In this document: piece by piece, positions 2,292 through 32,363 of the stretch
Layout: every line of letters starts with the position of its first letter
How positions within the stretch are numbered: position 1 is the first letter of the stretch
Assembly (NCBI GenBank): GCA_944376495.1
Contig: CALWCW010000066.1
Coordinates: 3,299-67,298 of the forward strand
Direction of reading: 5' to 3'
Source: an uncultured Clostridia bacterium
GTDB taxonomy: Bacteria > Bacillota > Clostridia > Christensenellales > UBA1242
DNA length: 64,000 nt
The notes under the pieces: model-generated
Database searches by the model: none
What the model saw: only the letters and a program-made list of their open reading frames with translations
What the model was told of the DNA's origin: nothing
Program-made: the position numbers and the translations under genes

Positions 2292-2462
2292 ATGAGTAAT
2301 GAAATTAAACCAAGAATAAAATCTGAACAAATTTTAAAATATTATGATGCCCTTTTGGCAGGTAGAATAGTCGCAAGAAAAAGTGACCTCGAAAAAAATT
2401 TAATTAAAGCAAAAGCACAAACATCAAATCATATTGATGATGAAATGTCTATGGGAATGTAA
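2292..2462 (+). CDS. Small hypothetical protein (56 aa), below the ORF-track length cutoff
   Basis: ATG at 2292 lies 3 nt after GGAGG. It has its own promoter and is followed by a T-run. Sequence MSNEIKPRIKSEQILKYYDALLAGRIVARKSDLEKNLIKAKAQTSNHIDDEMSMGM. Confidence 0.5.
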   Translation: MSNEIKPRIKSEQILKYYDALLAGRIVARKSDLEKNLIKAKAQTSNHIDDEMSMGM

Positions 2463-2600
2463 AAGGAAGTTTTATGCTTTCTTTTTTTATTATAAATTAA
2501 AATATTGACAATTTTAATGTTTTCTTTTGTGTATATTTTAGTTTATTTTATTAAATAAATTACAATTATCTAAAAATATCTATTATTTTATAAATTACAT

Positions 2601-2676
2601 CTAGGAAGCAAAAATTTTGACAAGTCAAAATTTGGGTTTGCTATCGCAAACAGCACATGAATGTGCGGCTTCCTAG
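2601..2676. repeat. Cloverleaf-like nested-palindrome element, copy 1 (possible structured RNA)
   Basis: Closing stem CTAGGAAGC/GCTTCCTAG encloses three hairpins: AAATTTTGAC-aa-GTCAAAATTT, GTTTGC-tatc-GCAAAC and GCACA-tgaa-TGTGC. Followed by TTGTTTTTTT. Confidence 0.7.
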
Positions 2677-2783
2677 TTGTTTTTTTAAAGCTCTATATAA
2701 AAATAACACAATAAAATAAAGTTAACTAATATATTATAATCAAGAACCTTAAATTTTTTTGATTTTGATTCGGTACAAGACAA

Positions 2784-2812
2784 TTGACATTGTCAAACAA
2801 GTATGTTATAAT
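2784..2812 (+). promoter_or_regulatory. Consensus promoter TTGACA-17-TATAAT, 8 nt before the ATG (leaderless architecture)
   Basis: -35 at 2784-2789, embedded in the palindrome TTGACA-T-TGTCAA. -10 at 2807-2812. No SD in 2813-2820 (TTTTTTAT). Confidence 0.7.
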
Positions 2813-2820
2813 TTTTTTAT

Positions 2821-4557
2821 ATGGAGCAAACATTAGAAAAGTTTAAATCTCATTTGTTTAAAGTCTGTGAGGATGATTGCCTTCGTAAACTTGCACTTGA
2901 TTTTTATGAAGATTTTAGTAAGTTCTATAAGGGGCAAGTTTTTGTGCGTGAAAATTTTGAAACAATTGAGATTGATGGGGAAATTTATGAACAGGATATA
3001 GTAAAAGATTTATTTGCTGATAAAGACGAGGTTACGGCGGAAGAAATTTTCACTTATAATTTTATTAACTTTGTTGAAAAATTGGAGTTCTTTGAGAAAC
3101 AAAACCATGTTGCTGGGGTTGTTAATGCAATCAAAAAACGTATTTTATTATATAAACCAAATTCTAAACAATTTTTTAATTATATTGTTGATAAGACAAA
3201 AGACACTCCTCCTTTATTTTCAATATTTTCAGAGAGCAAATTAAATAAAGGTGTAGAACTTTCTAAAAATCAAATTGCTGAATATAAAGCAATAGCAAAA
3301 AAATATGATATTGACATGGAAGCACAAATTCAAGCGTTACGCAAGAATCCTGAAAAAATTATTAAAGAAACTTTTTATCATGAGTTTTGTCATCTATTTG
3401 AAGTGAGAAAATTTAAAAATGGCAAGTATTTAAAAAATAACATGTCCAGTAGAATAGTCGAATTAAAAAATAAGAGAAGAAAAAAATGTATGTCAGGAGT
3501 GACATCTATTGATGAAAATTTGAAAGTTAAAGAAAAATTTATTAAAGATAATGCTTGTCTTATAGGCTCAAATGCGTTATCTGAAATTTTGAATGAAGAA
3601 CTAAATCAAAATGTTTTAAGAAGATTTTCAACAAAAGATGTTTCTGGCCTATATCAATCTACCGCTTCAAAAAAACAGATGAATAGTGGGTCAACTTATA
3701 GAATTAATTATGATTTTGCAACATTGTTTAAATGTGTAATTTTTGATGAAGATATGAAAAACTTGAGATTTAATGCAAGTCATATGATTAAATGTTTTAA
3801 TCAATTTCAAATAAGTGAAGAACTTTTGTCAAAATGTATAGAAGATATAAAAACAAATCTAATAAATATTAATTATGATATTTATTTTCGAGTTCAAAAT
3901 GTTTTAGATAATTTGAAAAGTGGCAAAAATACTAGTTTTGAAATTATTAATATTTTATCTGGTGTTTTCGAAAATGCAAAAAATATGGATGATACTTTTG
4001 TCTTTTATACCAAACTTTCACCTTATTTAATCGAATTTAAAGAAAATATTCAAGCTTTATATATGGATGTCATAAAATCTTCAGTCATTCAAAAGTTAAA
4101 TGATGACCAGTTTGTTAAAGATGATGAATTTTACAAACAACTTAATCAAACTTTGGAAAACATAGATAATTTTCTTATTTATCCCGTTGAAAATATTGAA
4201 GAAAATTACTTTGATGAAAATGGAAAGAAAGAACGGAAAAATCATTCTTCTTTGAATTTATATTCGCTTGATAAATGTGTTGAAAAATTTAAAAACAAAC
4301 TTGAAAATCATAAACAAATAAAAATTTTCCATGAATTATTTCATTTGATTAAACAACATGTTGAAAATTTGCCAGATGAAGAGAGGGAGAGGGTATTATC
4401 TCATTTGACTTTCTTTGAAAAACAAGATTCTATAGATAAAAAATATGATGCTCTTCAACTATTTTTAACATTTGATGAAATTTATAATGAAAGGTCCTTT
4501 CATTTATCGCAACAAACAAACAGGCAATTAGATGATAGCGAAAAGGATTTATTTTAA
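2821..4557 (+). CDS. Hypothetical 578-aa protein with a single HExxH (zincin-like) motif
   Basis: Long uninterrupted ORF. Motif ETFYHEFCHLFEV near residue 187. No signal peptide or TM segment. K/N/E-rich and helical-looking. Confidence 0.75.
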   Translation: MEQTLEKFKSHLFKVCEDDCLRKLALDFYEDFSKFYKGQVFVRENFETIEIDGEIYEQDIVKDLFADKDEVTAEEIFTYNFINFVEKLEFFEKQNHVAGVVNAIKKRILLYKPNSKQFFNYIVDKTKDTPPLFSIFSESKLNKGVELSKNQIAEYKAIAKKYDIDMEAQIQALRKNPEKIIKETFYHEFCHLFEVRKFKNGKYLKNNMSSRIVELKNKRRKKCMSGVTSIDENLKVKEKFIKDNACLIGSNALSEILNEELNQNVLRRFSTKDVSGLYQSTASKKQMNSGSTYRINYDFATLFKCVIFDEDMKNLRFNASHMIKCFNQFQISEELLSKCIEDIKTNLININYDIYFRVQNVLDNLKSGKNTSFEIINILSGVFENAKNMDDTFVFYTKLSPYLIEFKENIQALYMDVIKSSVIQKLNDDQFVKDDEFYKQLNQTLENIDNFLIYPVENIEENYFDENGKKERKNHSSLNLYSLDKCVEKFKNKLENHKQIKIFHELFHLIKQHVENLPDEERERVLSHLTFFEKQDSIDKKYDALQLFLTFDEIYNERSFHLSQQTNRQLDDSEKDLF

Positions 4558-4593: not shown

Positions 4594-4809
4594 ATGAGAA
4601 TTAAAAAGGATTTAAAAGAATTTTTACCTTGGAATAAAGGGAAATTTAAAAAGGTAGAAACAATGCTTGCAAAAGAATTTAGCGGACAGGAAAATTTGAT
4701 TGGGAAATCAAGTATTTATTGGGCACGTAAAAAGAAACTTCTTAAAGAACTTTACAACATTGACTGGAAAACTCCTCAAGAGTTAAATCCAGATACAATT
4801 TTTGATTAA
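4594..4809 (+). CDS. Hypothetical 71-aa basic protein
   Basis: SD AAAGAGG lies 5 nt upstream. Sits 36 nt after the 578-aa gene and is followed by a terminator. Confidence 0.55.
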   Translation: MRIKKDLKEFLPWNKGKFKKVETMLAKEFSGQENLIGKSSIYWARKKKLLKELYNIDWKTPQELNPDTIFD

Positions 4810-4817
4810 GCAAAGTG

Positions 4818-4850
4818 AGCACATCAATTTTTTCGGTGTGCTTTTATTTT
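4818..4850 (+). terminator. Rho-independent terminator
   Basis: AGCACATC / GGTGTGCT 8-bp stem (one G-U pair) followed by TTTTATTTT. Confidence 0.6.
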
Positions 4851-5642: not shown

Positions 5643-6427
5643 TTTTTGATATTTTAGCATTACTACTTGTATGTATTTTCTTCCCTGTTATTGTTTATTC
5701 GGGAATTAAAATTTATAAACCAAAAAGCTATAAAGGATTAATTATTGGATTATCAATCGCATTCTTATGTATGGAATTATTAAGATTTTTCTACAATGCA
5801 AGCTTGTATGACGGAGGTGTAACTCCAGCCGACGATATTAAATATTCATTCATTACCATACTTGTAATTGTCTGTATGTTTGCAACATTTAGTTCAGGAA
5901 AAGTAAGAAAGTTAAGTAGAGGTTTATTTTGCCTAACAAGTTTAATCCCTGTTGTTCTGGCAATAACGAACTCTAGCATTTATACAAATGTTTTAGATAC
6001 TTATGCTGTGACAAAGGCTTTATATTTTTTAGAAGCAGGTATTGTTTTGACAATTGCGTTGCTATATGTAATTCAAGATAAAACGGAGTTCTCTCCATGG
6101 CAAATTCTTTGGTCAATTATTCTATTTGTAATTTTTGTTGGACTAGACCTTCTTGTCATTTTCTTCTGGAGAACAGAAGCGATTATAGATACTACTTGGT
6201 ATATTGGAATGGCGGTTTCTGTTGTGACAATTCCTCTTGTTTATGGAGTAAACGTGCTTGTAAATAAGTTAATCAAAAAGAAATCGGAGCAAGTTGTAAA
6301 TGGTCAAGCAGAAAAAGAGTTGAGTGCTGATGCAGAAAGAATTGAAGAAGATATGCCCGCTAACTCTAATAATAATGAAGAAGAGATTATAAAACAAGAA
6401 GAGAATATAGAAAAAGAAAAAAAATAA
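5639..6427 (+). CDS. Polytopic integral membrane protein (hypothetical) with acidic/K-rich C-terminal tail
   Basis: Translationally coupled to the previous gene. About 7 hydrophobic segments. Tail EEDMPANSNNNEEEIIKQEENIEKEKK. Confidence 0.75.
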   Translation: MIFDILALLLVCIFFPVIVYSGIKIYKPKSYKGLIIGLSIAFLCMELLRFFYNASLYDGGVTPADDIKYSFITILVIVCMFATFSSGKVRKLSRGLFCLTSLIPVVLAITNSSIYTNVLDTYAVTKALYFLEAGIVLTIALLYVIQDKTEFSPWQILWSIILFVIFVGLDLLVIFFWRTEAIIDTTWYIGMAVSVVTIPLVYGVNVLVNKLIKKKSEQVVNGQAEKELSADAERIEEDMPANSNNNEEEIIKQEENIEKEKK

Positions 6428-6637: not shown

Positions 6638-7903
6638 ATGGACAAAAAGAGATGTTATTTTGTAATAGACATGAAATCATTTTTTGCATCTGTTGAATGT
6701 GCCGAGCGCAGTCTTGACCCAATGACTACAAAACTTGTAGTTGCTGACCAGTCTAGAACAGAAGCCACTATTTGTCTTGCAGTTTCACCAGCATTAAAGG
6801 CTTTAGGTATTAAAAATAGATGCAGACTTTTTGAAATTCCAAAGAATATAGAGTATATTGTTGCTCCTCCAAGAATGAAAAAATATATTGAATATGCGGC
6901 AGACATTTATGCAATTTATCTAAAATACATTGACAAAAACGATATTCATACTTACTCAATTGACGAGTCAATTATAGATGTCACTGATTATTTAAAATTA
7001 TATCAAATTAGGGCTAAAGATTTCGCAAAAAAACTTATGAATGAAATTTATGAAACATTGCATATTCCCTCAAGTGCTGGAATTGGAACAAATATGTATC
7101 TCGCTAAAATAGCCCTTGACCTTACAGCTAAACACTCTCCCGACAGAATTGGTTGGCTTACAGAAGAAAAATTTATAAAAACTCTTTGGAATCATAAACC
7201 GCTTACTGATTTTTGGCAAATTTCAAGTGGAATATCATCAAGGCTTGCAAAATATGGAATATTTGACATGGAGGGCATTGCAAAGGCAAATGAAGATATT
7301 TTATATAAAGAGTTTGGAATTAATGCCGAACTTTTAATTGATCATGCGTGGGGAAAAGAAAGTTGTTTGATGAGTGATATAAAATCATATAAAGGAAAAT
7401 CAAAATCAATTTCTTCATCTCAAATTTTACCAGAAAACTATGACTTTGAAAACGCAAAACTTGTTATGCGTGAAATGATTCAAAATGGATGCTATCAACT
7501 TTTCAGACAGGGTTACGTTACATCGCTTTTACATCTTTTTATAGGCTATGGTGATGATAGGTCGCAAGCAAAAGGTAGCATTAGAATGCCAGTTACAACA
7601 AATCTTTTTTCTTTTATTGTCAAATATATGGAAAAACTTTTTGACGACATAGTAGATAAGAAAAAACCAATTAGAAAAATTGGCTACGACTTTGCAGAAC
7701 TTAAAACTTCCGAATATGAGCAATATGATTTATTTACAGACCTTAAGGAAATAGAAAAAGAAAAGCAACTTGTCACAAGTATTTTAGAAATACAAGATAA
7801 ATATGGGAAAAATTTTATATTGAAAGGAGAAGATTTGACAGAAAAAGCAACTCAACGTGAAAGAAATTCACAAATAGGAGGACATAAAAGTGGAGAGAAT
7901 TAA
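6638..7903 (+). CDS. Y-family (translesion) DNA polymerase, UvrX/DinB-like
   Basis: N-terminal motif YFVIDMKSFFASVECAERSLDP (D-x-x-x-F-[FY]-A-x-x-E) and overall IMS-family layout. 421 aa. Confidence 0.85.
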   Translation: MDKKRCYFVIDMKSFFASVECAERSLDPMTTKLVVADQSRTEATICLAVSPALKALGIKNRCRLFEIPKNIEYIVAPPRMKKYIEYAADIYAIYLKYIDKNDIHTYSIDESIIDVTDYLKLYQIRAKDFAKKLMNEIYETLHIPSSAGIGTNMYLAKIALDLTAKHSPDRIGWLTEEKFIKTLWNHKPLTDFWQISSGISSRLAKYGIFDMEGIAKANEDILYKEFGINAELLIDHAWGKESCLMSDIKSYKGKSKSISSSQILPENYDFENAKLVMREMIQNGCYQLFRQGYVTSLLHLFIGYGDDRSQAKGSIRMPVTTNLFSFIVKYMEKLFDDIVDKKKPIRKIGYDFAELKTSEYEQYDLFTDLKEIEKEKQLVTSILEIQDKYGKNFILKGEDLTEKATQRERNSQIGGHKSGEN

Positions 7904-9066: not shown

Positions 9067-10341
9067 ATGAATAACATTTTTAGTGATTTAGAAAAATTAA
9101 AAAGAGAAATATGGCACTTGCGGGAGAGTATAAGGGCACTATCTAGTGTAAATTTAACTTCCTTACAGGCAAAAGTCAATGAACATGACAGCCAATTTCA
9201 GCAATTATCAACGGCTTTAGACTCTCAAAATCAACTTTTGCAATCTACGTCTAATTTAGTCAATTCACATGAAACATCAATTGAAAATTTAAATGAAGAT
9301 TATCAAACACTATCAGGGAATTTGACCTCGCTGGACGGAACGGTATCATCACACACGCAGTCAATTTCAAGCATCAACTCAAGTATTACCGAATTGCAAA
9401 ACAAAGATGACGATATAGATGAAGAACTTGCATTGCATTATTCAAGAATAACAAGTAATACAAATTCAATTAATTCAATAGGCGATGATATTGATAGTTT
9501 ATCAAGTAGTTATAGTCAATTGGTTGAAGCATCTAACACGTTATACAACACTTTAGGAGATTTACAAGATGATGTAGAAGAAAACTTTGGTAATATTACG
9601 ACATTGACTGGGAATATAAGCACCATAAATACTAATTTGCAAACATTGTCGGAAGATTTGACTTCGCTGGATGGAACAGTATCATCACACACGCAGTCAA
9701 TTTCAACCATTAACTCAAGTATTACCGATTTGCAAAATAAAGATGATGATATAGACGAAGAACTAGCGTTGCATTATACCAGAATAACAAGCAATACAAA
9801 CTCCTTCAATTCTTTAAATAGCACGGTGGGTTCTTTAACAAGCAGTTATTCAGAATTGGTTACCGCTGTAAACACTTTAGATTTATCATTAAATAGTGTT
9901 GAAAATTCAATTACTGGCATTGAGGAAGATATAGGCGATATACAAGAGGCTCTTCCAGAAACAATTGTTCTTTATGATAAAGACAGCACCGATTCAAATA
10001 TCAATTTGGGTTATACGAATGGTGCATTAGGAAGAACGACTTTAACTATTGATTTGTCGTCATATGAGAAATTAAGTATTTATGCAAGTTTGAATGGGTT
10101 TTCTGCTCAAACAACTATTTATCTTAAGAATAGAACTCTTACTGACCATGTCATTTTTTCTGCCGCTGATAATTTTACATCACTTCATTTTTTGAAAGTA
10201 AATATTCCATCTTCTTTAGATAAAGTAGAAGTTAAAAATATGGGTGTCTATACTTATGATTCCACTACTGGTAATGTAAGTTTTCAATATTCTTCAAGAA
10301 AAGCAGGATATTTTATTTATAGAATTGAAGGAATGAAATAA
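9067..10341 (+). CDS. Coiled-coil repeat protein with a beta-rich C-terminal domain (tail-fibre-like; hypothetical)
   Basis: 424 aa, S/T/N/L-rich with a heptad-like N-terminal 300 aa. Internal 112-aa duplication. C-terminal 130 aa are rich in aromatic and beta-type residues. No signal peptide. Confidence 0.75.
   Translation: MNNIFSDLEKLKREIWHLRESIRALSSVNLTSLQAKVNEHDSQFQQLSTALDSQNQLLQSTSNLVNSHETSIENLNEDYQTLSGNLTSLDGTVSSHTQSISSINSSITELQNKDDDIDEELALHYSRITSNTNSINSIGDDIDSLSSSYSQLVEASNTLYNTLGDLQDDVEENFGNITTLTGNISTINTNLQTLSEDLTSLDGTVSSHTQSISTINSSITDLQNKDDDIDEELALHYTRITSNTNSFNSLNSTVGSLTSSYSELVTAVNTLDLSLNSVENSITGIEEDIGDIQEALPETIVLYDKDSTDSNINLGYTNGALGRTTLTIDLSSYEKLSIYASLNGFSAQTTIYLKNRTLTDHVIFSAADNFTSLHFLKVNIPSSLDKVEVKNMGVYTYDSTTGNVSFQYSSRKAGYFIYRIEGMK
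9321..9464 (+). repeat. Intragenic direct repeat, unit 1
   Basis: About 90% identical (by eye) to 9657-9800, offset exactly 336 nt (112 codons). Encodes LTSLDGTVSSHTQSIS.INSSIT.LQNKDDDIDEELALHY.RITSNTNS. Confidence 0.9.
9657..9800 (+). repeat. Intragenic direct repeat, unit 2
   Basis: Partner of 9321-9464. Substitutions are spread over all four bases. Confidence 0.9.
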
Positions 10342-10562: not shown

Positions 10563-11483
10563 TTAGTCAAATCGCAATCCTTTTAAAACGGGTTGACGCA
10601 TCCCTCCATCTTTTGTCAACATCATATATTGCACAGTGCAGATTAGATTGGGATTTATCCATATAATGTCCTTATCTTTTAATTGCTCAAATAGTGGTTT
10701 CTTAATTTTATTTATACTAGCAAAGTCTAGTAGTAAGTTTTTTTCTTCTTTTGACATAGTTGCATTTACATTTCCTCTATATTGAAGATTTCCTTGTTTG
10801 TCAAAATCGCCTAAAATTAAATCTTTTATTTTTCCATTGTCATCCAATTTGAATCCGCATACTATAAAATCTTCGTCAAGAAGATTTTTTATTTTTATCC
10901 AATTTTTACTCCGCTTTCCTAGTTCATAAACGGAATCTTTTTTCTTGGCAACAATTCCTTCCAAATTTAATTTTTTTGTTTGATTAAAAAGTTCAATTCC
11001 TTTTTCTTCAATATAACGACTTATGCTCAAAAGTTCGTTTTCTTTAATAGTCTTTTTTAATAATTCTTTTCTTTCAAGCAATGGCTTATTTATGAGTTCT
11101 CTATCTTTTAAAAATAATATGTCGTAAGCAACAAAATGAACTTTTGTTTTTTCGCTTTCAATTTCGATTCGAAATTTATCTGTTAAAAGGCTTCGTTTTT
11201 GTAAGGCAAAAAAATCGGGTGTACCGTTTTTGCTTATAACAACCAGTTCACCATCAATTATACACTTCTCTTTAGCTTGCTTGTGAATATTGTTGAGTTC
11301 GGGATAAACAGAAGTGACGTCTTTATTTCTTTTGTTACGCAAAATGGTTTTATCATTATCTAAATATGCAACGCATCTTATACCATCAAGTTTAAGTTCG
11401 TAAATATAATCTTTGTCATTAAAGGGGAGTTTTTCACTTTCAAGAAGCATCGGTGAAATATTTTTCTTATCAAACAAATTCAT
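10563..11483 (-). CDS. ligD: ATP-dependent DNA ligase (LigD ligase domain only)
   Basis: Adenylation motif YELKLDGIRCVAY (KxDG). 306 aa with no polymerase or nuclease domain. Start lies 1 nt after the ku stop. Confidence 0.85.
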   Translation of the reverse strand: MNLFDKKNISPMLLESEKLPFNDKDYIYELKLDGIRCVAYLDNDKTILRNKRNKDVTSVYPELNNIHKQAKEKCIIDGELVVISKNGTPDFFALQKRSLLTDKFRIEIESEKTKVHFVAYDILFLKDRELINKPLLERKELLKKTIKENELLSISRYIEEKGIELFNQTKKLNLEGIVAKKKDSVYELGKRSKNWIKIKNLLDEDFIVCGFKLDDNGKIKDLILGDFDKQGNLQYRGNVNATMSKEEKNLLLDFASINKIKKPLFEQLKDKDIIWINPNLICTVQYMMLTKDGGMRQPVLKGLRFD

Positions 11484-11484
11484 C

Positions 11485-12276
11485 TTATGCCTTCTTTTTT
11501 ATTTTGACAACTTTATCAAGATTTTGAACCGAAGCCTGTAAAGCATCCATAAGGTCAGTGATTTTAATCGTTTTGTCATCATCAACTTGTTTTATTTGTT
11601 TTCCTTTTGCTTTATCTTTAATAGCCTGTTTGACACGAGCGTTATATTCATCTTTGTAATCAGCGGGGTTAAAATTTCCGCTCATACCTTTTATAATCTC
11701 TTTTGCTAAAGTAACCTCTTGCTTTGAAATATCTTGCTTGATTTCACCTGTTGGACTATGTTGAACTTCTTCATCAAAAAATAATTTGCTTAATAAAAGG
11801 TTGTCATCTCGCACCCAAAGAGCAATTACGCATTCGCTAGACCCTAGCATAGTTTTTGCAATTCCAACTTTATTTTCCTTTTTTAAAACTTCCTTTAAAA
11901 GATAGAAGGCTTTTTCAGCACCCTTACTCTCTGGAACAACATAGTAAGTTTTGTCATAATAAATAGGATTGATTTCTTCAAGCGATACAAATTTGTCAAT
12001 AATAATATTTTTATCTTTTTTGCTTTTAAGCCTTTCAAGTTCTTCATCTTCAAATATAACATATTGCCCTTTTTCTATCTCATATGCTTTCACAATATCT
12101 TCATTTTTTAAAACTTTGTCATTACAATCAACGCAAGTTTTCTTGTATTGGACTCTTGATTTTGTTTTTTTATCAAGCATATTAAATCCTATATCATTGT
12201 TCTTAATGGTATTGTGAAGGGTTATAGGAATATAAACAAGCCCAAAGCCTATTGAAGTCTTGTAACTATAAGCCAT
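11485..12276 (-). CDS. ku: Non-homologous end-joining protein Ku
   Basis: N-terminus MAYSYKTSIGFGLVYIPITLH is typical of bacterial Ku. SD AAAGGAG precedes the ATG at 12276, so the track start 12312 is rejected. Confidence 0.85.
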   Translation of the reverse strand: MAYSYKTSIGFGLVYIPITLHNTIKNNDIGFNMLDKKTKSRVQYKKTCVDCNDKVLKNEDIVKAYEIEKGQYVIFEDEELERLKSKKDKNIIIDKFVSLEEINPIYYDKTYYVVPESKGAEKAFYLLKEVLKKENKVGIAKTMLGSSECVIALWVRDDNLLLSKLFFDEEVQHSPTGEIKQDISKQEVTLAKEIIKGMSGNFNPADYKDEYNARVKQAIKDKAKGKQIKQVDDDKTIKITDLMDALQASVQNLDKVVKIKKKA

Positions 12277-12312
12277 AAAAATCTCCTTTATTTTAGTATG
12301 TCGTTTTAACAA

Positions 12313-12425: not shown

Positions 12426-12482
12426 ATAAGTCCCTATTTTAAACCATATGGGTCTTATTGGGACTTATAATATTGAATAATT

Positions 12483-12998
12483 TTATTCTAAAGTTTTTAA
12501 GAATTGTTCATAATGTCTTGATTTTGCTTCAAATATTCCACCAGCAATAGCAGTTGGGATTGCACTTATAGCACATATTGTTGGTGCATTACTTGTGCTA
12601 CTGTTATAGGCTTCAAGAAATTCAGGTTCATAATTTGTTATATAGTCATGGACATCATAGTCTTCGTTCATTACTCTTTTAGATTGTGCATAATATTCAT
12701 CTAAACTAATTTCTTTGTTGTCATATTTTACATCAAGTTCTTCAAGTCTTTGTTCTTTCCATTGCTGATTAAATTCTTCATATCTTGTTTGAGAAATGAC
12801 ATCGTCTTGTTTGACTGATTCATTATAAGCTATAGCCGCTGATGTTCCAAGTAACCCCAACGTGCCTAGCAAAAGAGTTATTCCTAATCCTAAATGTATA
12901 TTTTTAATTAAGGTATAGTTTTTCTTGTCTTTAAGTAATGCTTCATTTTCTTCCATATTTTCTATTTTCTTCTTGTTCATGTAATATCTTAATGTCAT
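12483..12998 (-). CDS. Hypothetical two-TM membrane protein (paralogue of 13016-13711)
   Basis: SD AAAGGAG. One TM segment near residue 35, a Y/Q/N/E-rich middle region and a second hydrophobic segment near the C-terminus. Confidence 0.65.
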   Translation of the reverse strand: MTLRYYMNKKKIENMEENEALLKDKKNYTLIKNIHLGLGITLLLGTLGLLGTSAAIAYNESVKQDDVISQTRYEEFNQQWKEQRLEELDVKYDNKEISLDEYYAQSKRVMNEDYDVHDYITNYEPEFLEAYNSSTSNAPTICAISAIPTAIAGGIFEAKSRHYEQFLKTLE

Positions 12999-13015
12999 TT
13001 AATTCTCCTTTTACT

Positions 13016-13711
13016 TTACTCATTTTTATTTTCGTCTATAGATTGATTTTTGTTTTTATTGCTTTCTTTATCACCAAAGTAATCATCCAAAAAAATATTA
13101 TAAAATTCATCATTTTCATCAATATGTGATGGTGATTTTTCATGAATAAATCCATATTTGTCTTGCTCAAAGAAATCATAGTTTGTTTCATGTTCTTGTC
13201 TTAAAGCGCGGTATTTTTGATATTCTTTTTCAGCACTTGTGCCATAGAAGAAGGTTAGATACAGTGCACAGAAACCTGCTATTGCAACGGCTGATGAAAT
13301 TTTATAGGTTCTTTCGCACTTTAAAATAAGGTTATTGTAATAATCTTGTTGTTCACTTGTTCCGTATGTTGAAATATATCCATCAATACTTGCATCTTGT
13401 ATGTTAGAGGTTTTTGCCTGATATTGCGAATATGAAATTTCACCTTCTTTGTATTGATTGTAAAATTTTTGCGTTTGTTCATTTTTGTAGGCTCGGTTAT
13501 ATTGATAATAGCCTGTTTCGTTTAAAAGTTCATTCCTTTTGTCAGAAAAATTATTAAGGTTAGTGCCAAAAGCATATATTCCACCGACAATACCAATCCA
13601 ACTTAATGCGTGACCAACCAAAAGTGAAATCATTTTTATTTTATTTCTTTTTTCACTTTTGAGTAGTGCTTGGTATTCAAAATCTTGTTTTAATAATTCT
13701 TCTTTTATCAT
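13016..13711 (-). CDS. Hypothetical two-TM membrane protein (paralogue of 12483-12998)
   Basis: ATG at 13711 preceded by AGGAAG. Same TM / Y-Q-N-rich / TM layout plus an acidic, N/K-rich tail. The track extension to 13879 lacks any start signal. Confidence 0.65.
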   Translation of the reverse strand: MIKEELLKQDFEYQALLKSEKRNKIKMISLLVGHALSWIGIVGGIYAFGTNLNNFSDKRNELLNETGYYQYNRAYKNEQTQKFYNQYKEGEISYSQYQAKTSNIQDASIDGYISTYGTSEQQDYYNNLILKCERTYKISSAVAIAGFCALYLTFFYGTSAEKEYQKYRALRQEHETNYDFFEQDKYGFIHEKSPSHIDENDEFYNIFLDDYFGDKESNKNKNQSIDENKNE

Positions 13712-13733
13712 GTTTCTTCCTTTTTGCTCTATA

Positions 13734-13762
13734 ATTTTATCACAGCACAAAAGGATTGTCAA
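13734..13762 (-). promoter_or_regulatory. Promoter TTGACA-17-TAAAAT
   Basis: Minus strand: -35 at 13762-13757 and -10 at 13739-13734. A leader of about 16 nt carries the SD. Confidence 0.55.
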
Positions 13763-13933
13763 TACCCATTTTAATATATTTATTTTGATAATTATATAAA
13801 TTGTTCCTAAAAACGTAAGTGATGATTTTGTAAAAAAGTTTTGTTTTATAATCTTATAATAAAAAAGAAACAGTATCAAATTAACTGTTTCTTCTTGAAT
13901 TATGTAAGATAATTAAAAGTTTTATATTTTTAA

Positions 13934-14476
13934 TTAAAATTCTTCCACAAGAATTTCAAAGTAAGCTTCTGGGTGATTGCAAACAGGGCAAACTTTAGGT
14001 GGTTCGTTTCCTACGTAAACATGTCCACAATTTCTGCAAACCCAAATTTTCTTATCTGTTTTTTTGAATACTTTGCCTTCTCTTACAAGCTGTGCAAGTT
14101 TATTATATCTTTCCTCATGGCGTTTTTCAATTTCACCAACAGCTGCGAATTTATATGCAATGTCATCGAACCCTTCTTCTTTTGCCTCTTGAGCCATTCT
14201 TGCATACATATCAGTCCATTCGCCATGTTCACCAGCAGCAGCATCAACTAAATTTTCAAGTGTTGAAGGAACGTCGCCTCCATGAAGTTCTTTGAACCAC
14301 ATTTTTGCGTGTTCTTTTTCATTATTAGCAGTTTCTTCAAAAATTGCTGCTATTTGTTCATAACCATCTTTTTTTGCTTTTGAAGCATAATATGTATATT
14401 TATTTCTTGCTTGGCTTTCACCAGCAAATGCTTCCATTAAATTTTTTTCTGTTTTAGTCCCTTTTAAGTCTTTCAT
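13934..14476 (-). CDS. rbr: Rubrerythrin
   Basis: Ferritin-like diiron N-domain (EAFAGESQARNKY..., ...EKEHAKMW) plus C-terminal rubredoxin-like CRNCGH...CPVCNHP. Confidence 0.9.
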   Translation of the reverse strand: MKDLKGTKTEKNLMEAFAGESQARNKYTYYASKAKKDGYEQIAAIFEETANNEKEHAKMWFKELHGGDVPSTLENLVDAAAGEHGEWTDMYARMAQEAKEEGFDDIAYKFAAVGEIEKRHEERYNKLAQLVREGKVFKKTDKKIWVCRNCGHVYVGNEPPKVCPVCNHPEAYFEILVEEF

Positions 14477-14721
14477 TTCTTTACCTCCGAGAGTGATTAT
14501 AGCATAAATTTGTGTTTTGACAAAGTAAAATTATGTTTATTAATAAGGATTTTTATTAAAAATTAAATCAATCCTTAGTTAATTCAAAAATTACTTGAAA
14601 ATTAAATCTTATTGTTGTAGAATAAATTAGATTAATCTATAAGTGGGAATTTATTATGTTAATCTAATATAGTAACTATTTTTATAGTTATAATACATAA
14701 TAAATATGAAAAGAGGGGATT

Positions 14722-15723
14722 ATGATAAAATCAATTTATAAAAAAATATTTAAACTGGCTGACAAAAATATTGTAAAAAAATGTTTAAAGACAAACTACA
14801 AAATATCAAAATTTGTGACAGATAAAGTTGATTTTGTTTATGGTAAGGACATTAAACGAAATCGCTTTGATTTATATTATCCTAAAAATAACAATCAAAA
14901 ATTGCCGACAATTTTAAATGTTCATGGTGGAGGTTATGTTGCAGGGTCAAAAGAGAATGAGATTGAATATTGTTGCAAACTTGCCGAACTTGGCTTCTGC
15001 GTAATTAATATGGAATATACCTTATCTGAACAAGAGGGATTTCCAAAACCTGTTTATGAAGTTTTTGACCTATTTAATTATATTGAAAATAATAATGAGA
15101 TAAGTTCTCATATTGACTATGACAAATTTTTTCTTGCTGGAGATAGTGCGGGAGGCCATATTGTTAGTTCGGTTGCTAATATACAATGTAACGATGAGAT
15201 AAAAAAATGCTTCGGAGTGGAAGGAGGACCAGAAATAAAAGGACTTATTTTAAATAGTCCAGTTTTTGGTGCTTTTAGGTTTGGAAATCTTCCATTCATT
15301 AAAAGAGATTTTGAAAAAATTGTTTTTGGAAAGTATGTTGGAAGCGAGTTGCAAAACTATTGTCATAACCTAGATATTCTTACAGATAAGTTTCCTCCTG
15401 TAATAATATTTTCTGCTAGCAATGACTTTATTAAAATTCATGCTAATATGTTTTGTAAAAAGGCGAAGGAACTAGGACTTAATGTTCAAAGTTATACCTT
15501 TGTAACTGGAAAACATTTAGGTCATGATTTTGTAATTTACAATTTAAGCGATAAAGAAGGAATTTTTGCTTTAGAAAAAATTAAAACTTTTGTAAATGAT
15601 GTTATTGATGGAAATTTAAAGCAAGGTGTGTTTTGTGAAAAAATCAATTTATCTAAAGTGGAAAGATTAGAGAAAAGAAATAAAAAAAGAGAGGATAAAA
15701 ATTTTTCAGAAAAAGAGGATTAG
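14722..15723 (+). CDS. Alpha/beta hydrolase (esterase/lipase, HSL-type)
   Basis: Oxyanion HGGGY and nucleophile elbow GDSAGG. K/E-rich C-terminal tail. Confidence 0.8.
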   Translation: MIKSIYKKIFKLADKNIVKKCLKTNYKISKFVTDKVDFVYGKDIKRNRFDLYYPKNNNQKLPTILNVHGGGYVAGSKENEIEYCCKLAELGFCVINMEYTLSEQEGFPKPVYEVFDLFNYIENNNEISSHIDYDKFFLAGDSAGGHIVSSVANIQCNDEIKKCFGVEGGPEIKGLILNSPVFGAFRFGNLPFIKRDFEKIVFGKYVGSELQNYCHNLDILTDKFPPVIIFSASNDFIKIHANMFCKKAKELGLNVQSYTFVTGKHLGHDFVIYNLSDKEGIFALEKIKTFVNDVIDGNLKQGVFCEKINLSKVERLEKRNKKREDKNFSEKED

Positions 15724-15822
15724 TAAAAAAAAATGTTTATTTATATTTTAAACGTTAATGATTTTTTATTTGTTTTTTAATTAAAAGTTAAAATATCAAA
15801 TCAAAGACTTGTTTATTAATCT

Positions 15823-16542
15823 TTATTTTATAAGGGCTAAAATGTTTTTAAATTTTTGTTTATCTTGTTTTTTATATGTTATATAAAAATTCATTGTCGC
15901 ATCATCATCAAGAATTGGCAAACTTATTCTATTAATTTCCGCACGAACTGGTAAAGTCAAGTTTGTTGAAAAATTAGGAATGGTTGAAGCATTTATAATT
16001 TCGTATAGGTTTTCCATTGCTTGAGGGAAAAATTTAGATTTAGGGAGATTTTTGGCTACGATTTTGTCCCAAATTCCTAAATTTTCAGCCACCAAAAAAG
16101 ATTGTCCATCAATTTCTTTAAAATGAACACCATTTTTCATCCCAGATAAAAAATGCGATTTAGGAATTGTTATGTATAAATTTTCTGTAAAAGCAAATTT
16201 TGATTCAAGTGTAGGGTCTAAAACTTCATTAGAAGTAAAGATAAAATCATAATTGTTATTTTTTAGTCCATAAATTAAATCATTTTCTTCTTCAATCTTA
16301 CTTTTAATTGTCTTAACGGGAAACATTGAATAAAAAAGGTTGCCATATTTAATCATTGGTCCTGGTGCAACTGAACCAATTGATAAATTCGTCTTTTGAT
16401 TATAAAAAGCAATTACTCTTTCACGCATATATTCTTCAGCATCAATAACATTAATGGCTTGGCGGACAAGTTCATGCCCGACATCGTTTAAAGATAATTT
16501 ATTTTTTGTTCTGTCAAAAATAGGAACGGAAATATGAAGTTT
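15823..16542 (-). pseudogene. LysR-family regulator, 5'-truncated (HTH lost)
   Basis: The substrate-binding domain is intact. The frame stays open upstream of the track start and reads ...[26 protein letters not shown], the end of a LysR HTH/linker. It then hits a stop at 16549-16551 with no start codon. Confidence 0.75.
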
Positions 16543-16838
16543 TGGTTGCTATTGGGAAAAAATATAACAAATCATCTGCTCAAGTAATTTTACGTTGGCT
16601 TATTCAACGTGGAGTGATTGTCGTTTGCAAATCAACGCATTTAGAAAGAATACAAGAAAACTTTAATGTTTTTGATTTTGAATTGACAGAAGAAGATATG
16701 AAACAAATTAAACAACTTGATAAAGAGGAGAGTCTTTTCTTTAATCATCAAGATCCTAAAATGGTGGAATGGTTTGACCAAATTGTGATGGTTCGTAGAA
16801 CTAATAATGACGCAAGTAAAGAAAAGAAATCTTGGTAG
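16536..16838 (+). pseudogene. Aldo/keto reductase, C-terminal about 100 aa only
   Basis: [55 protein letters not shown] matches the AKR C-terminus. The N-terminal roughly two-thirds is absent. In-frame stop at 16521-16523. Confidence 0.75.
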
Positions 16839-18128: not shown

Positions 18129-18825
18129 TTTCACCTCGCAATCTTCCGCATTTGTCATTTTCTAGCATTGGTGCTATATCATTTAGTTTTCCTTGTGCTA
18201 ATATCTCTCCATTCTTCAATAAGATTATTTCATCGGCAATTTCTAATATTTTTTTCTGATGACTTACAATAATATTCGTTGCGTTTTTTAGTGACGAAAA
18301 AATTTTGATAAGATTGTCAAAACTCCATAGGTCAATCCCAGCCTCTGGTTCGTCAAAAATATTTAGTTTTGCATTTCTAGCAATAGCCATTGCAAGTTCT
18401 ATTCTCTTAAGTTCTCCGCCTGAAAGTTTGTCGTCAATAGGGCGGTCAAGATAGTCTTTTGCACATAACCCAACAGTTGATAAAAAATCACAATGATTAT
18501 TGAGTTTATTTTTTTCACCGCTTGCAAGGTCTAAAAGTTCTCTTACTTTTATGCCTTTAAATGTAACAGGTTGTTGAAAAGCATAACTTATGCCTTTTCT
18601 TGCTCTTTCATCAATCGTTAGGGCTGTCAAATCCTCATTATCAAAAAAGATTTCTCCACTTGTTTGTTTTAAAATGCCCATTATGATTTTAACAAGTGTA
18701 GATTTACCACTGCCATTAGGCCCAGTTATAACATATATTTTTTCGTCTTCAAATTTTAGATTTATATCTTTTAAAATGTCATTATTCTCTTTGACACTAT
18801 AACTTAATTTTTTTATTTCTAACAT
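18121..18825 (-). CDS. sufC: Fe-S cluster assembly ATPase SufC-like (ABC ATPase)
   Basis: Walker A GPNGSGKST, signature LSGGELKR, Walker B NIFDEPEAGID. Paired with a SufB/D-family gene. Confidence 0.75.
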   Translation of the reverse strand: MLEIKKLSYSVKENNDILKDINLKFEDEKIYVITGPNGSGKSTLVKIIMGILKQTSGEIFFDNEDLTALTIDERARKGISYAFQQPVTFKGIKVRELLDLASGEKNKLNNHCDFLSTVGLCAKDYLDRPIDDKLSGGELKRIELAMAIARNAKLNIFDEPEAGIDLWSFDNLIKIFSSLKNATNIIVSHQKKILEIADEIILLKNGEILAQGKLNDIAPMLENDKCGRLRGENE

Positions 18826-25192: not shown

Positions 25193-25398
25193 ATTAAGAC
25201 GTTGAGAAAGTAAGTAGTTTTATTATAAGCTTTCAGAGAGACAGTGGTTGGTGAAAACTGTTAAGTTTTATAAAATGAAAGACAACTTTTGAGTTTTAAA
25301 AATATTTTCTTAATGAGTGGTCATTTTGACAAATTAGGTGGCACCGCGGATAAAAATTATTCGTCCTAATGCAAATATTTTTGCGTTAGGACTTTTTG
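25193..25398 (+). promoter_or_regulatory. T-box leader (tRNA-sensing riboswitch), specifier GAC (Asp)
   Basis: AGAGA box (25235-25240 region). Specifier-loop context GAAAGACAA with GAC at 25281-25283. T-box sequence AAATTAGGTGGCACCGCGG at 25331-25349. Terminator GTCCTAATGCAA/TTGCGTTAGGAC plus TTTTT at 25363-25397. Confidence 0.85.
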
Positions 25399-25484
25399 TT
25401 TACATTAATTAAATTATCAAATTTTGATTTTTGTCAATAAAAAATCCTAAAAGTAAAACAAAATTTGATATAAAGGAGAAAAAT

Positions 25485-27218
25485 ATGATTTTTGAAAATG
25501 AATATAGGACTATTGATTGTGGTAGTTTAAGAATTTCAGATGTTGGAAGCACTCAAAGGCTTGCTGGTTTTGTTGATACCATAAGAAAATTAGGTGGAAT
25601 TACATTTGGAGTTTTAAGAGATTTCTATGGCAAGACGCAAATTATTTTGCCTGAAAATTTAGATTTAGAATTAAATCGAGAAGACGTTGTCACTGTTTCT
25701 GGGCAAGTTCGAGAACGTTCAAGCAAAAATCCAGCAATGGCAACTGGCGATATAGAACTTGTTGTTGAAAGTATTGAAATTTTAGGCAAATGCGAACATG
25801 TCCTTCCTTTTGAAATTAAAACGAGTGAAAGTGTTAATGAAGACTTAAGACTTAAGTATAGATATTTAGATTTAAGAGCCGATTACAATAAGGAGATGTT
25901 AAAATTACGAAGTGACTTAATGCACTATGTTCGCAATTTTATGCACGATTTGGGATTTTTGGAAGTTCAAACTCCAATTTTGACCGCATCAAGTCCAGAG
26001 GGGGCAAGGGATTTCCTGGTTCCTTCAAGATTAAATAAAGGCAAATTTTATGCACTTCCTCAAGCACCTCAACAATTTAAACAACTTCTTATGACAAGCG
26101 GGGTTGATAAATACTTTCAAATAGCACCTTGCTTCAGAGATGAAGATGCAAGAGCCGACCGCTCTCCAACAGAATTTTATCAAATAGATATGGAAATGGC
26201 ATTTGCAACTCAAGAAGAAGTTTTTAAGGTTGTTGAACAATTGTATGCTGGAATTTTCGAAAAGTTTGCTGGCAAAAGACCTGCAACACCATTTAAACGT
26301 TTGACTTTCGAGGAAGCGATGAGAGATTATTGCTCTGATAAACCAGATATGAGAAATCCTTTAAAAGTTAGTGATGTAACAGACATATTTGCAAATTCAT
26401 CTTTCAATGCGTTTAAAGATAATGTTATAAAAGCAATTAAAGTTGATTGCAAAGATAAAGGCAGAAAATTCTATGATAGTTTGACAGAATTTTTAAAATC
26501 AAGAGAAGCAAAAGGGCTTGCCTATGTTCGTGTCAATGAGGCAGGCGAGTTTGAAACTGGAATTTCAAAATTCATAACAGATGATGAAAAGAAACTTTTG
26601 AAAGAGCGAATGGAATACAAAGAAGGCGAAACAATTTTCTTTGTCGCAGATGAAAAAGACAGGGTCATAAAATTTGCAGACCTTTTAAGACAAGAACTTG
26701 GAAAACGACTTGAACTTATTGATTTGGATGATTATAGTTTTGTTTGGATTGTCGATTTTCCTTTCTATGAACTTGATGATGAAGGAAACATTTGTTTTTC
26801 ACATAATCCTTTCAGTTTACCACAAGAAAGCATTGAAGAGGTTAAGAAAAATCCTCTTTCTGCCAAAGCATATCAATATGACCTTGTCATAAATGGCTAT
26901 GAAAGTTTATCTGGTGCTGTTAGAAATCATAGACCAGACTACATGGTAGAACTATTTAAAATTGCAGGGTATGATAAATCAGTGGTAGAAAATAAATTCC
27001 CAGCACTTTATAATGCCTTCTCTTATGGTGCACCTCCACACTGCGGAATGGGTGCGGGATTTGATAGGCTTATGATGCTTCTTACTCACAATGAGTTTAT
27101 AAGAGATGTCATAGCTTTCCCTATGAACAAAAATGGTTGCGACCCACTCACAAATGCACCAAATGTTGTTGATGAAAAACTATTAAGAGATGTTCATATA
27201 AAATTGATTGATGATTAA
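25485..27218 (+). CDS. aspS: Aspartate--tRNA ligase
   Basis: ATG at 25485 after AAAGGAG. Bacterial-length class IIb enzyme with OB-fold N-terminus, motif 2 FRDEDARADR and motif 3 GAGFDRL. Confidence 0.93.
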   Translation: MIFENEYRTIDCGSLRISDVGSTQRLAGFVDTIRKLGGITFGVLRDFYGKTQIILPENLDLELNREDVVTVSGQVRERSSKNPAMATGDIELVVESIEILGKCEHVLPFEIKTSESVNEDLRLKYRYLDLRADYNKEMLKLRSDLMHYVRNFMHDLGFLEVQTPILTASSPEGARDFLVPSRLNKGKFYALPQAPQQFKQLLMTSGVDKYFQIAPCFRDEDARADRSPTEFYQIDMEMAFATQEEVFKVVEQLYAGIFEKFAGKRPATPFKRLTFEEAMRDYCSDKPDMRNPLKVSDVTDIFANSSFNAFKDNVIKAIKVDCKDKGRKFYDSLTEFLKSREAKGLAYVRVNEAGEFETGISKFITDDEKKLLKERMEYKEGETIFFVADEKDRVIKFADLLRQELGKRLELIDLDDYSFVWIVDFPFYELDDEGNICFSHNPFSLPQESIEEVKKNPLSAKAYQYDLVINGYESLSGAVRNHRPDYMVELFKIAGYDKSVVENKFPALYNAFSYGAPPHCGMGAGFDRLMMLLTHNEFIRDVIAFPMNKNGCDPLTNAPNVVDEKLLRDVHIKLIDD

Positions 27219-29732: not shown

Positions 29733-29969
29733 AAACTCAATCCTTTTTTATTATTTTACTATGATAAACAACAAAAGTCAATATCTTTTAAAGATTTATG
29801 ATGTGTAAATTATTTTATTATATCTCTAAATAAAAATCAATATTATTTGACATATTTTTTGTCATTATGTCAAATTTCTACATTTTTGTCTTTGCGAGAG
29901 TAATAAGTTTAAGTTTATAATGATTTAGACAACTTATTATTTTTATACAATAATAAAAAGGTGATTATT

Positions 29970-32334: not shown

Positions 32335-32363
32335 TTGCAACAAAATATTATATATTGTATAAT
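32335..32363 (+). promoter_or_regulatory. Promoter TTGCAA-17-TATAAT directly abutting element copy 2
   Basis: -35 at 32335-32340 and -10 at 32358-32363. The closing stem of the element starts at 32365. Confidence 0.65.

Follow-up and report, generated by a model that had tools for sequence, protein, structure and literature searches.

The 64,000-nucleotide (nt) stretch of DNA from an uncultured Clostridia bacterium that was analysed here (contig CALWCW010000066.1; hereafter the window) contains three copies of an element in which a closing helix encloses three consecutive hairpins to form a four-way junction. The three sites are real and far beyond chance. With at least 11 further copies in related metagenome-assembled genomes (MAGs), they form a lineage-restricted family of non-coding interspersed repeats of approximately 71–98 nt in uncultured, low-GC, spore-forming gut Clostridia. 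The fold of these elements is maintained rather than their sequence. The family was previously unannotated, and its nearest known counterparts are the pneumococcal BOX elements and the REP/MITE repeats. The reading favoured here, tentatively and at somewhat less than an even chance, is that of a REP/BOX/MITE-like family of structured repeats that would be co-transcribed with their neighbours and whose folded RNA would be selected as a compact, very stable module.

The three window copies

The copies and their arms are as follows, where H1, H2 and H3 are the inner hairpins in the order read.

2601–2676, + strand: copy 1, a complete four-way junction, identified by folding, a stem scan and a covariance model (CM; E = 3e-3)
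2601–2609/2668–2676, + strand: copy 1 closing stem (CTAGGAAGC/GCTTCCTAG), with H1 at 2612–2633, H2 at 2636–2651, H3 at 2653–2666 and linkers AA, GG, A and G
32365–32454, + strand: copy 2, a four-way junction with which the predicted tilS transcript starts at its 5′ end, identified by folding, scans and the CM
32365–32377/32442–32454, + strand: copy 2 closing stem (GGGTGAGAAAATC/GATTTTCTCACCC), with H1 at 32378–32402, H2 at 32404–32423 and H3 at 32424–32441
60404–60493, + strand (H1-first orientation): copy 3, a four-way junction, identified by folding and scans; both flanking genes are on the - strand
60404–60415/60482–60493, + strand: copy 3 closing stem (GGGCTAGGAAGC/GCTTCCTAGCCC), with H1 at 60416–60436, H2 at 60437–60457 and H3 at 60458–60480

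Copy 1 reads CTAGGAAGC-aa-AAATTTTGAC-aa-GTCAAAATTT-gg-GTTTGC-tatc-GCAAAC-a-GCACA-tgaa-TGTGC-g-GCTTCCTAG, followed by TTGTTTTTTT. A preliminary description of the window had placed three sites here, each with a closing stem around three hairpins joined by 0–2 nt. Its coordinates, sequences and spacing are correct, exactly so for copies 2 and 3; copy 1 had been written out without its 1–2-nt linkers. Hairpin 2 of copy 3 is longer than first described, reaching AGAAAAGGC/GCTTTTTCT by way of one G·T pair (+ strand), and a lone A precedes the 3′ closing strand of this copy.

With RNAfold, the four-way junction is both the minimum free energy (MFE) structure and the centroid of copies 1, 2 and 3 on either strand, with energies of −34.4, −47.7 and −52.0 kcal/mol (z = −6.4, −10.7 and −8.7), respectively. 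None of 200 shuffled sequences folded as well, and DNA parameters give the same four-way fold. All copies of the family, including those from the related loci described below, have the junction as MFE structure and centroid with RNA and DNA parameters (z between −6 and −13).

Copies 1–3 were the only strong cases in the 64 kb, both in scans for perfect closing stems enclosing at least three hairpins and in sliding-window folding of both strands. A further candidate at 18245–18363 was dismissed as weak and within a coding region. A CM built from copy 3 alone and run on the window with filters off recovered copy 2 (E = 2e-6) and copy 1, the next match having E > 0.1. A 1.9 Mb set of mostly unrelated loci, which also included the window and a few relatives, was scanned as well; outside the window and its relatives, low-GC junctions as perfect as these occurred only in two Clostridia MAG loci (L092 and L115) and in one phage contig (L011). 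Folding, scans and the CM bear out the initial proposal of a family not recognised before, in which the four-way architecture is conserved. In the window, no inner hairpin of the three copies has a second copy, and a capture of these hairpins from elsewhere was rejected since none of them recurs there.

Further copies and the definition of the family

The H1 pattern ATTTTGAACNNNGTTCAAAAT was scanned through public collections. In GTDB (one genome per species) it matched 102 loci, and at only one of these matches is there a complete family copy (L115 2382–2455 from an Eubacteriales MAG, closing stem GCAGGAAGT). Other copies were found on the fetched GTDB stretches at L092 1806–1897, L107 17–87 and L107 7908–7992, together with a degenerate copy at L092 7652–7744; hairpin 3 of the copy termed L107b is also degenerate. 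On L092 and L107, the pattern matches themselves coincide with degenerate copies. The same pattern matched 107 loci in JGI metagenomes with no true members and 49 loci in viral contigs with no members, look-alike nested hairpins being present only in L011 and L047. A looser viral pattern (GGAAGY...TTTTGA...TCAAAA) gave only chance matches among the matches listed, and a blastn search of copy 3 against plasmid and phage collections returned nothing relevant. A staphylococcal lnu(A) plasmid match to copy 3 (E = 0.9), first taken as a single-strand origin, is a chance match that does not fold (z = −1.2).

The main relatives were found by way of the loci around ArgS and TilS homologues of related MAGs. 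Locus L262, whose ArgS is 72% identical, contains a −54.8 kcal/mol junction 3′ of argS and a small open reading frame (ORF) (L262a, 12099–12191), a second junction between ybaB and recR (L262b, 9294–9372, reaching 9286–9380 with G·U pairs) and an AT-rich junction at 4738–4819. There are about four copies in the 14.7 kb of this locus, compared to three in the 64 kb of the window and two each in L092, L107 and L268. The family is not a three-copy curiosity. The junctions of L268 are at 9273–9366 and 7176–7251 and that of L270 is at 9235–9324. The copy-3-only CM, run with filters off, recovered L270 (E = 1e-11), L262a (7e-9), L268 (2e-6), L092 (3e-5) and L262b (9e-5), all with a primary sequence unrelated to that of copy 3. 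Weaker AT-rich members exist besides the degenerate ones. No elements were found in the 16–34 kb of L264/L267, L266 with L271, L274, L276 and L407. With default filters the CM misses every member of different sequence, and MAFFT cannot align the family even with N-padded rows; therefore, a CM with filters off and a hand-made structural alignment were used.

Two candidate relationships did not survive inspection. The region L264 13105–13197 was dismissed as a member since it is the gap between two convergent tRNA-like ends. Copy 1 and L262a both follow argS and a small ORF and have a common GTTTGC/GCAAAC arm; orthology between them was not upheld. Since L270 and L407, which are closer to L262, have no element at this position, independent insertion is as likely as orthology.

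The parsed members may be described in terms of a closing helix of 7–15 bp, three hairpins of 9–13, 5–11 and 5–13 bp, linkers of 0–2 nt and loops of 3–6 nt with no conserved loop sequence. Each copy is a nested palindrome in which the closing helix is a terminal inverted repeat, and all copies found are in intergenic DNA. A near-universal sequence signature is present at the first junction only: the 5′ closing strand ends in AAGY, paired with RCTT, and the start of hairpin 1 is a run of A and then TTTTG. The signature reads, for example, GGAAGC-AAAAATTTTGAC in copy 1, TCAAGC-AAAAAATTTTGG in L262b, CCAAGCG-AAAAGTTTTTGG in L268 and GGAAGT-AATTTTGAAC in L115. Hairpin 1 had been put forward as conserved in sequence, which holds within one subfamily; family-wide, only the AAGY/RCTT and A-run-TTTTG junction is kept.

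The family consists of several subfamilies. The closing stem CTAGGAAGC is common to copies 1 and 3, with the related stems GCAGGAAGT and ATAGGAAGT in L115 and L107a, and the closing stem ACTATGTGATG is common to L262 4738 and L268 7176, with the related ACTATATGAAGT in L107b. Copies with a common closing stem can differ wholly in the sequence and length of their inner hairpins. Between copies that share a closing stem, as in copy 1 compared to copy 3 and L262 4738 compared to L268 7176, arm lengths shift symmetrically. The earlier statement that conserved structure with divergent sequence argues against a recently copied repeat was too strong, given that closing stem and hairpin 1 are common to copies 1 and 3, that copy 2 is inserted and that degenerate copies exist.

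Several other structures were observed in these loci. A 24-bp perfect long hairpin with an inner hairpin at L262 13087–13165 (−33.5 kcal/mol, z = −10.4) contains ATCAAAAAATTTT, which recalls the family junction motif, and may be a two-armed variant. A different small element forms a tandem pair in L270 (3018–3085 and 3163–3230, 145 nt apart), with a closing stem CAGACG and two inner hairpins that give a three-way junction. In the phage contig L011 (IMG/VR contig 3300032038_006778), a dense nest of perfect hairpins with 3-nt loops at 1140–1510, 3′ of amidase and holin genes, includes a TTTTGAAC-N3-GTTCAAAA hairpin along with one five-way and one four-way junction. In design this nest is similar to the family; its sequence is unrelated and its G+C content is 50%. 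In two Clostridia MAGs, the hairpin AATTTTGAAC-N3-GTTCAAAATT stands beside arrays of the heptamer TTAGCAA/TAATTGC and small CTCGC...GCGAG hairpins (L061 ~3345, L062 ~5163, L124 ~7343 and L143 ~4639), a separate repeat landscape that reuses the same hairpin. At L117 ~3770–3800 and L093 ~5808–5840, the hairpin-1 sequence extends over the stop codon of a conserved gene whose product ends in ...IEWE*, and the DNA there reads GGGAGTAATTTTGAAC; more hairpins are present downstream with no closing stem.

Pairing is kept while the sequence drifts

The maintenance of the fold was evaluated in two ways. In a structure-guided alignment of 10 members, 371 of the 373 pair cells are paired (359 Watson-Crick and 12 G·U), compared to 55 ± 2% when the 3′ partners were shuffled within columns and 32–50% when the partners were slid by 1–3 columns. 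Changes on both sides are present in 44 of the 50 pair columns. Since the alignment was fitted to the structure, these figures chiefly reflect the near-perfect pairing of each member taken singly.

The stronger test is provided by the orthologous ybaB-recR series, and it demonstrates that the fold rather than the sequence is maintained. Here an element is present at the same site in three species (L262, L268 and L270) whose ArgS proteins are 79–83% identical. Third-codon positions (conserved four-fold-type codons) are 41–51% identical, which, at such a high AT content of the genome, is taken to mean saturation. Identity between the elements is 47–65%, and each element has 37–41 Watson-Crick pairs, 0–4 G·U pairs and no mismatch. 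When L262b and L268 were aligned by eye, five compensatory double changes were identified (two each in the closing stem and hairpin 1, one in hairpin 2) along with one G·U intermediate and no disruptive changes; loops and linkers differ freely. A similar replacement of GTGC/GCAC by ATGC/GCAT is seen between L115 and L107a. The preliminary claim that arms change in sequence while staying complementary is supported by both the pair counts and these compensatory changes.

Complementarity of this kind could also arise from selectively neutral nested palindromes that have no function and whose arms are kept complementary by intrastrand template switching during replication (quasipalindrome correction). 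In keeping with such a process, complementarity is almost absolute with very few G·U intermediates, arm lengths change symmetrically between copies with a common closing stem, the inner hairpins are unique in the window and degenerate copies exist. It does not account well for a four-part architecture kept at one site in three species after synonymous saturation, for the conservation of the junction signature and size range or for a T-run placement that depends on context (see below). Together with the strand asymmetry described next, these points make a purely neutral origin distinctly unlikely.

Which strand folds

In the H1-first orientation there are 12 G·U pairs and two A·C mismatches in the stems; the opposite strand would have two G·U pairs. 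The 12:2 asymmetry has a one-sided P of approximately 0.007 under symmetry and of approximately 0.02 when a GC-skew mutational bias of ~0.57 is allowed for; a symmetric correction process would not be expected to produce it. The forward strand is also favoured in folding energy, by 7 kcal/mol in L262a, by 4 kcal/mol in copy 3 and, in L262b, by 11 kcal/mol over the same span or 19 kcal/mol with the G·U-extended closing stem. From the G·U asymmetry and the energy advantage it follows that one particular strand folds. This speaks against operators, symmetric cruciforms and other roles that involve the double strand alone. The asymmetry fits RNA and single-stranded DNA alike and does not separate the two.

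A double-stranded site, either an operator or a cruciform for a dimeric regulator or a junction-binding nucleoid protein, is accordingly considered improbable. Its attraction is that hairpin 1, ATTTTGAAC-N3-GTTCAAAAT, is a perfect dyad that recurs in approximately 25 Clostridia MAG loci among the 102 GTDB matches, and that copy 2 abuts a promoter. The dyad, however, is not kept: the spacing in hairpin 1 of copy 1 differs (TTTTGAC-AA-GTCAAAA, 16 bp compared to 19 bp) and other members have unrelated sequences. Since half-site spacing differs and hairpin 1 is replaced elsewhere, no single dimer could bind all copies. The spacing of the LexA Cheo box and of the Rex, ArgR/AhrC and CodY operators does not fit hairpin 1. 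Hairpin 1 as an operator of these or of CRP/FNR types was rejected since its spacing varies and its sequence is not kept.

The window has a G+C content of 29% and a GC skew that is positive almost throughout; thus, the + strand is the leading-strand sequence. All three window copies point along the positive-skew strand. In all copies that could be judged, the forward strand is in the majority gene direction of the locus, and at 10 of about 11 independent sites it is in the direction of at least one adjacent gene. The exception is copy 3, which is antisense to both neighbours yet follows the GC skew.

Gain, loss and persistence

The TilS relatives that are 74–80% identical keep the promoter and a short leader between spoIIE and tilS and have no element there (L271–L276). 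In L271, for example, TTGCAA-17-TATAAT is followed by a leader of about 25 nt as estimated from sequence. By this comparison, copy 2 is a lineage-specific insertion into a conserved promoter and 5′ untranslated region (5′UTR), absent from sister genera. It is identical in eight conspecific strains from different samples, of which L279, compared in full, is 95–99% identical to the window; copy 1 is identical in three further contigs. Between ybaB and recR, the element present in L262, L268 and L270 is absent from the window strain (spacer of 47 nt), from L264, L266 and L267 (1 nt each) and from L407 (19 nt). No target-site duplication or direct repeat was found at the flanks of any copy that was read. 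The sequence just outside common closing stems is often copy-specific yet complementary, as in GGG...CCC for copy 3 and GC...GC for L115. Overall, the pattern is that of a dispersed repeat whose turnover is slow: copies come and go between genera and are fixed within a species. Of the earlier thought that the sites might be strain-variable insertions with duplicated flanks, the variable presence applies between genera; the copies are fixed within species and no flank is duplicated.

This pattern bears on the possibility that the family is a mobile element working as single-stranded DNA, in which the junction would form on the lagging-strand template or in transferred single-stranded DNA and a structure-specific enzyme (an HUH/Y1 transposase or other recombinase) would excise and insert it without target duplication, any RNA effects being by-products. 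Such an element would resemble IS200/IS605-derived elements, REP/RAYT elements and folded attC/attP sites. The perfect Watson-Crick stems, the stability of the same fold with DNA parameters, the absence of target-site duplication from all copies whose flanks were read, the variable presence between genera and the degenerate copies are all consistent with it. So are the orientations, since the window copies follow the GC skew even where one is antisense, and the copies in other loci all follow the majority gene direction. Copy 2, and possibly L092a, are located just past a -10 box, where the DNA is melted when an open complex forms, and L262a persists between terminators in a gap that is probably not transcribed.

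On the other side, no transposase, HUH or recombinase gene is present in the window ORFs scanned or beside any copy; none of the 38 window ORFs scanned encodes a transposase, integrase, reverse transcriptase or HUH protein. The left flank has no target tetranucleotide in common among copies, and known Y1 substrates are imperfect subterminal hairpins, not a closed junction. The copies are long-lived, being identical within species and orthologous across three species, and the T-run pattern suits a transcript context. On balance, mobility as single-stranded DNA is unlikely, though it is a possibility to be taken seriously.

Gene context and transcription signals

The transcription signals adjoining the window copies are listed here.

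2677–2686, + strand: T-run TTGTTTTTTT directly 3′ of the copy 1 closing stem, so that copy 1 is shaped like an intrinsic terminator of the argS/small-ORF transcript
32335–32363, + strand: tilS promoter TTGCAA-17-TATAAT, kept in relatives without the element
60396–60403, - strand: T-run TTTTTATT after copy 3 when read on the - strand, in the position of a terminator for the - strand transcript

Copy 1 lies 3′ of argS (450–2219) and of a conserved 56-aa ORF (2292–2462), both as first described, and upstream of a 12/12 consensus promoter (2784–2812) of an uncharacterised 578-aa gene; weak promoter-like hexamers are present just 5′ of it. Copy 2 is between spoIIE (29961–32249) and tilS (32487–33821) and starts 2 nt past the last base of the tilS -10 box, with a single T between. 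Copy 3 is downstream of a family-2 glycosyltransferase (GT2) gene (60583–61530, - strand) and upstream of the - strand promoter (60366–60337) of a DedA/VTT-domain gene. Relatives carry Spo0A and SpoIIE, and the few homologues with a name come from 'Clostridia bacterium' MAGs.

Copy 1 on the + strand and copy 3 on the - strand have the arrangement of an intrinsic terminator; copy 2 and the ybaB-recR copies do not. The terminator scan tool cannot score branched stems. Elsewhere, T-runs follow the closing stem in L115 (TTTTTATAG) and L107b (TTTTT). Copy 2 is followed by TTTCAACG with no T-run, and there is none after the three ybaB-recR copies, where termination between the cistrons would be harmful. 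This match between T-run placement and context is the main reason that a role at the transcript level is favoured. The original suggestion that copy 1 could terminate the argS/small-ORF transcript is plausible.

Under the favoured reading of a structured repeat selected as RNA, the elements would be co-transcribed with their neighbours. Copy 2, 1 nt after the tilS -10 box, and the intercistronic series in dnaX-ybaB-recR are in contexts expected to be transcribed. The folded module would block exonucleases and insulate cistrons and, where a U-run follows the closing helix (copy 1, and copy 3 on the - strand), it would act as an intrinsic terminator. Copy 1 may thus end the argS/small-ORF transcript and protect its 3′ end, copy 2 may cap the 5′ end of the tilS mRNA as an exonuclease barrier, copy 3 read on the opposite strand may terminate the glycosyltransferase gene and the ybaB-recR copies may provide insulation between cistrons. 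These functions are proposed because they are established for REP, BIME, ERIC, Correia and BOX elements (summarised in PMC3049150).

A number of observations weigh against selection on a transcribed RNA. Transcription of every copy is read from context only. Copy 3 in its family orientation is antisense to both neighbours and has its G·U pair on the untranscribed strand, and L262a, between two canonical convergent terminators where little transcription is expected, is yet among the most perfect copies. The stems (3% G·U, 0.5% mismatch) are far more perfect than those of typical selected RNAs, a perfection that fits homogenisation of palindromes at the DNA level at least as well. That all copies run along the GC skew is equally expected of a replication-coupled single-stranded DNA element. 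Lastly, a nuclease barrier is a generic proposal that does not explain four arms instead of one, nor does the favoured model explain the few non-Watson-Crick pairs, the fixed number of three inner arms or the hypervariable interiors between identical ends.

These last features would be accounted for if the junction itself were recognised by a dedicated structure-reading system, either a new single-stranded DNA mobile element or an RNA junction of a new class, bound by protein, that would punctuate the operons of these Clostridia. In the mobile-element version, the closing helix and the AAGY/A-run-TTTTG junction would be the handle for an enzyme and the two free arms would be remade each generation, for example by snap-back synthesis. 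Such a system is regarded as unlikely; if true, it would explain why there are exactly three inner arms, why the interiors are hypervariable between identical ends and why non-Watson-Crick pairs are nearly absent after saturation.

The elements might also be discrete, independently transcribed small RNAs of approximately 90 nt, either trans-acting or bound to a protein of their own, a possibility given very little weight. Promoter-like hexamers are found 5′ of copy 2, just upstream of L092a and, weakly, before copy 1, T-runs follow copy 1 and L115, and the compact, stable fold could accumulate. However, the promoter before copy 2 is that of tilS and is present in relatives without the element, most copies have no promoter or terminator, and several are intercistronic. 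None of the nucleotides in loops or linkers is conserved and all arms are paired throughout, which leaves neither a seed nor a binding pocket.

Comparison with known elements

Such elements are not described in Rfam 15 or in the full-text literature searched. A search of the whole window against Rfam 15 at the gathering threshold gave no overlap with the elements, and in E-value mode the four elements searched all remained far below thresholds. ARAGORN and the Rfam tRNA model did not detect the elements, the sole tRNA of the window being tRNA-Leu at 34217–34300. The view that they are not a tRNA, riboswitch, ribozyme or attC site is upheld by the negative Rfam and ARAGORN results and the absence of attC features.

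The pneumococcal BOX, RUP and SPRITE repeats provide the nearest comparison. They are tightly folded, co-transcribed repeats, and the ends of BOX pair around variable inner modules (PMC3049150). Like them, the family consists of short, AT-rich, multi-copy intergenic repeats of Firmicutes with predicted co-transcription and a predicted effect on neighbouring genes, and new insertions are rare (PMC3049150). The likeness to BOX is one of architecture, in that the ends pair to close the fold and inner hairpin modules vary without disturbing the closing duplex; a resemblance to terminators, as in copies 1 and 3, is shared with SPRITE. Unlike BOX, the family has a compact four-way junction of 71–98 nt with exactly three inner hairpins, linkers of 0–2 nt and about 97% Watson-Crick pairs, and its inner hairpins have unique sequences rather than being copies of one boxB module. 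The orientation bias also looks much stronger than the ~61% of BOX, RUP and SPRITE (PMC3049150), and no insertion sequence (IS) with matching ends is known for the family.

REP, BIME and REPIN elements are likewise multi-copy extragenic palindromes, with roles for REP in mRNA 3′-end protection, attenuation and termination. They are thought to move as single-stranded DNA without target duplication, and there is no duplication here either. REPs are single imperfect hairpins of 20–40 nt with a GTAG or CGTC head (PMC3733652). The present element, in contrast, is a closed nested palindrome of 71–98 nt without such a head, its signature being AAGY/RCTT, and no RAYT (Y1 transposase) gene was found in the window or the fetched loci.

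With MITEs such as Correia, ERIC and bcr1, the family shares terminal inverted repeats, small size (<300 bp), a non-coding intergenic nature, several copies per genome, a predicted tightly folded transcript, a presence that varies by lineage and the capacity to supply terminators or processing sites. Unlike MITEs, it has no target-site duplication and no related autonomous IS was seen in the window ORFs scanned. Copies that share ends have unrelated interiors, so that structure and not sequence persists. The family is therefore MITE-like in behaviour but fails the definition of a MITE, by target-site duplication, and of a REP, by form.

Branched attC sites with variable terminal structures and the CTX-phage attP resemble the family in that structure is conserved, sequence is free and one strand folds. 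In contrast to attC, there are no R/L boxes or extrahelical bases, the stems are perfect, and no cassette array or integrase was found nearby; the copies are solitary among housekeeping genes. The t-elements and tRNA-like signals of plant mitochondria and mascRNA similarly have a cloverleaf-like four-arm fold in untranslated or intercistronic regions, unlike which the present elements have arm lengths that do not suit a tRNA (a closing stem of 7–15 bp) and no D/T-loop features.

Three further candidates were rejected. A retron msr-msd was set aside with no reverse transcriptase gene beside any copy, and ends of IS200/IS605 or the oriT of a nearby TraG-like gene with no Y1 transposase or relaxase beside any copy. 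tRNA mimicry for autoregulation of ArgRS or TilS was discarded since other copies are beside unrelated genes and no loop is conserved.

REP, BOX, ERIC and Correia repeats shape mRNA stability, termination and genome plasticity, and they are known almost entirely from cultured Proteobacteria and streptococci. The present family, from uncultured gut Clostridia, is an unusually clean and linker-poor four-way junction that survives complete sequence turnover. As such, it offers a sharp natural test of whether a fold is maintained by selection on RNA, by use as single-stranded DNA or by palindrome correction. It also has value for annotation, since copies are located in promoters, 5′UTRs and operon spacers of housekeeping genes (tilS, recR and argS) and would otherwise be ignored in expression predictions for MAGs. 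Should there be an enzyme or binding protein dedicated to it, the element would represent a new structure-specific system.

Other features of the window and related loci

In every relative examined, a small ORF of 40–60 aa without a Pfam match is located approximately 70–80 nt 3′ of argS (window 2292–2462, + strand; L262 11837–12019; L264 11838–11960; L266 11836–11970; L270 11838–11987; L407 6191–6352), and it may be a conserved micro-protein or a leader-like feature. In L270, a type II-A CRISPR locus is found 3′ of argS at 12451–16661, where Cas9 is split between overlapping ORFs of 528 and 875 aa, pointing to either a frameshift or an error of assembly. An island directly upstream of spoIIE in L276 (2497–7460) encodes a reverse transcriptase (2497–3993), a rolling-circle Rep-like protein and a large serine recombinase, with no four-way element near.

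Near the end of the window, a TraG/VirD4-type type IV coupling protein is encoded at 61758–63773 (+ strand), 1.3 kb from copy 3, and the GC skew falls in the last 8 kb; the window may be cut off here at the border of an integrative conjugative element. At 25193–25371 (+ strand) there is a T-box leader (Rfam, 102.7 bits), directly 5′ of an aspartyl/asparaginyl-tRNA synthetase-like gene (25431–27218). Adjacent genes for Ku and an ATP-dependent DNA ligase (10563–12312, - strand) form a non-homologous end-joining pair, near which a DinB/ImpB-type polymerase is encoded at 6638–7903. Two apparent gene fragments were also identified, a LysR substrate-binding domain without its helix-turn-helix part (15823–16428, - strand) and an aldo/keto reductase of which only the C-terminal 60 residues are present (16542–16838, + strand).

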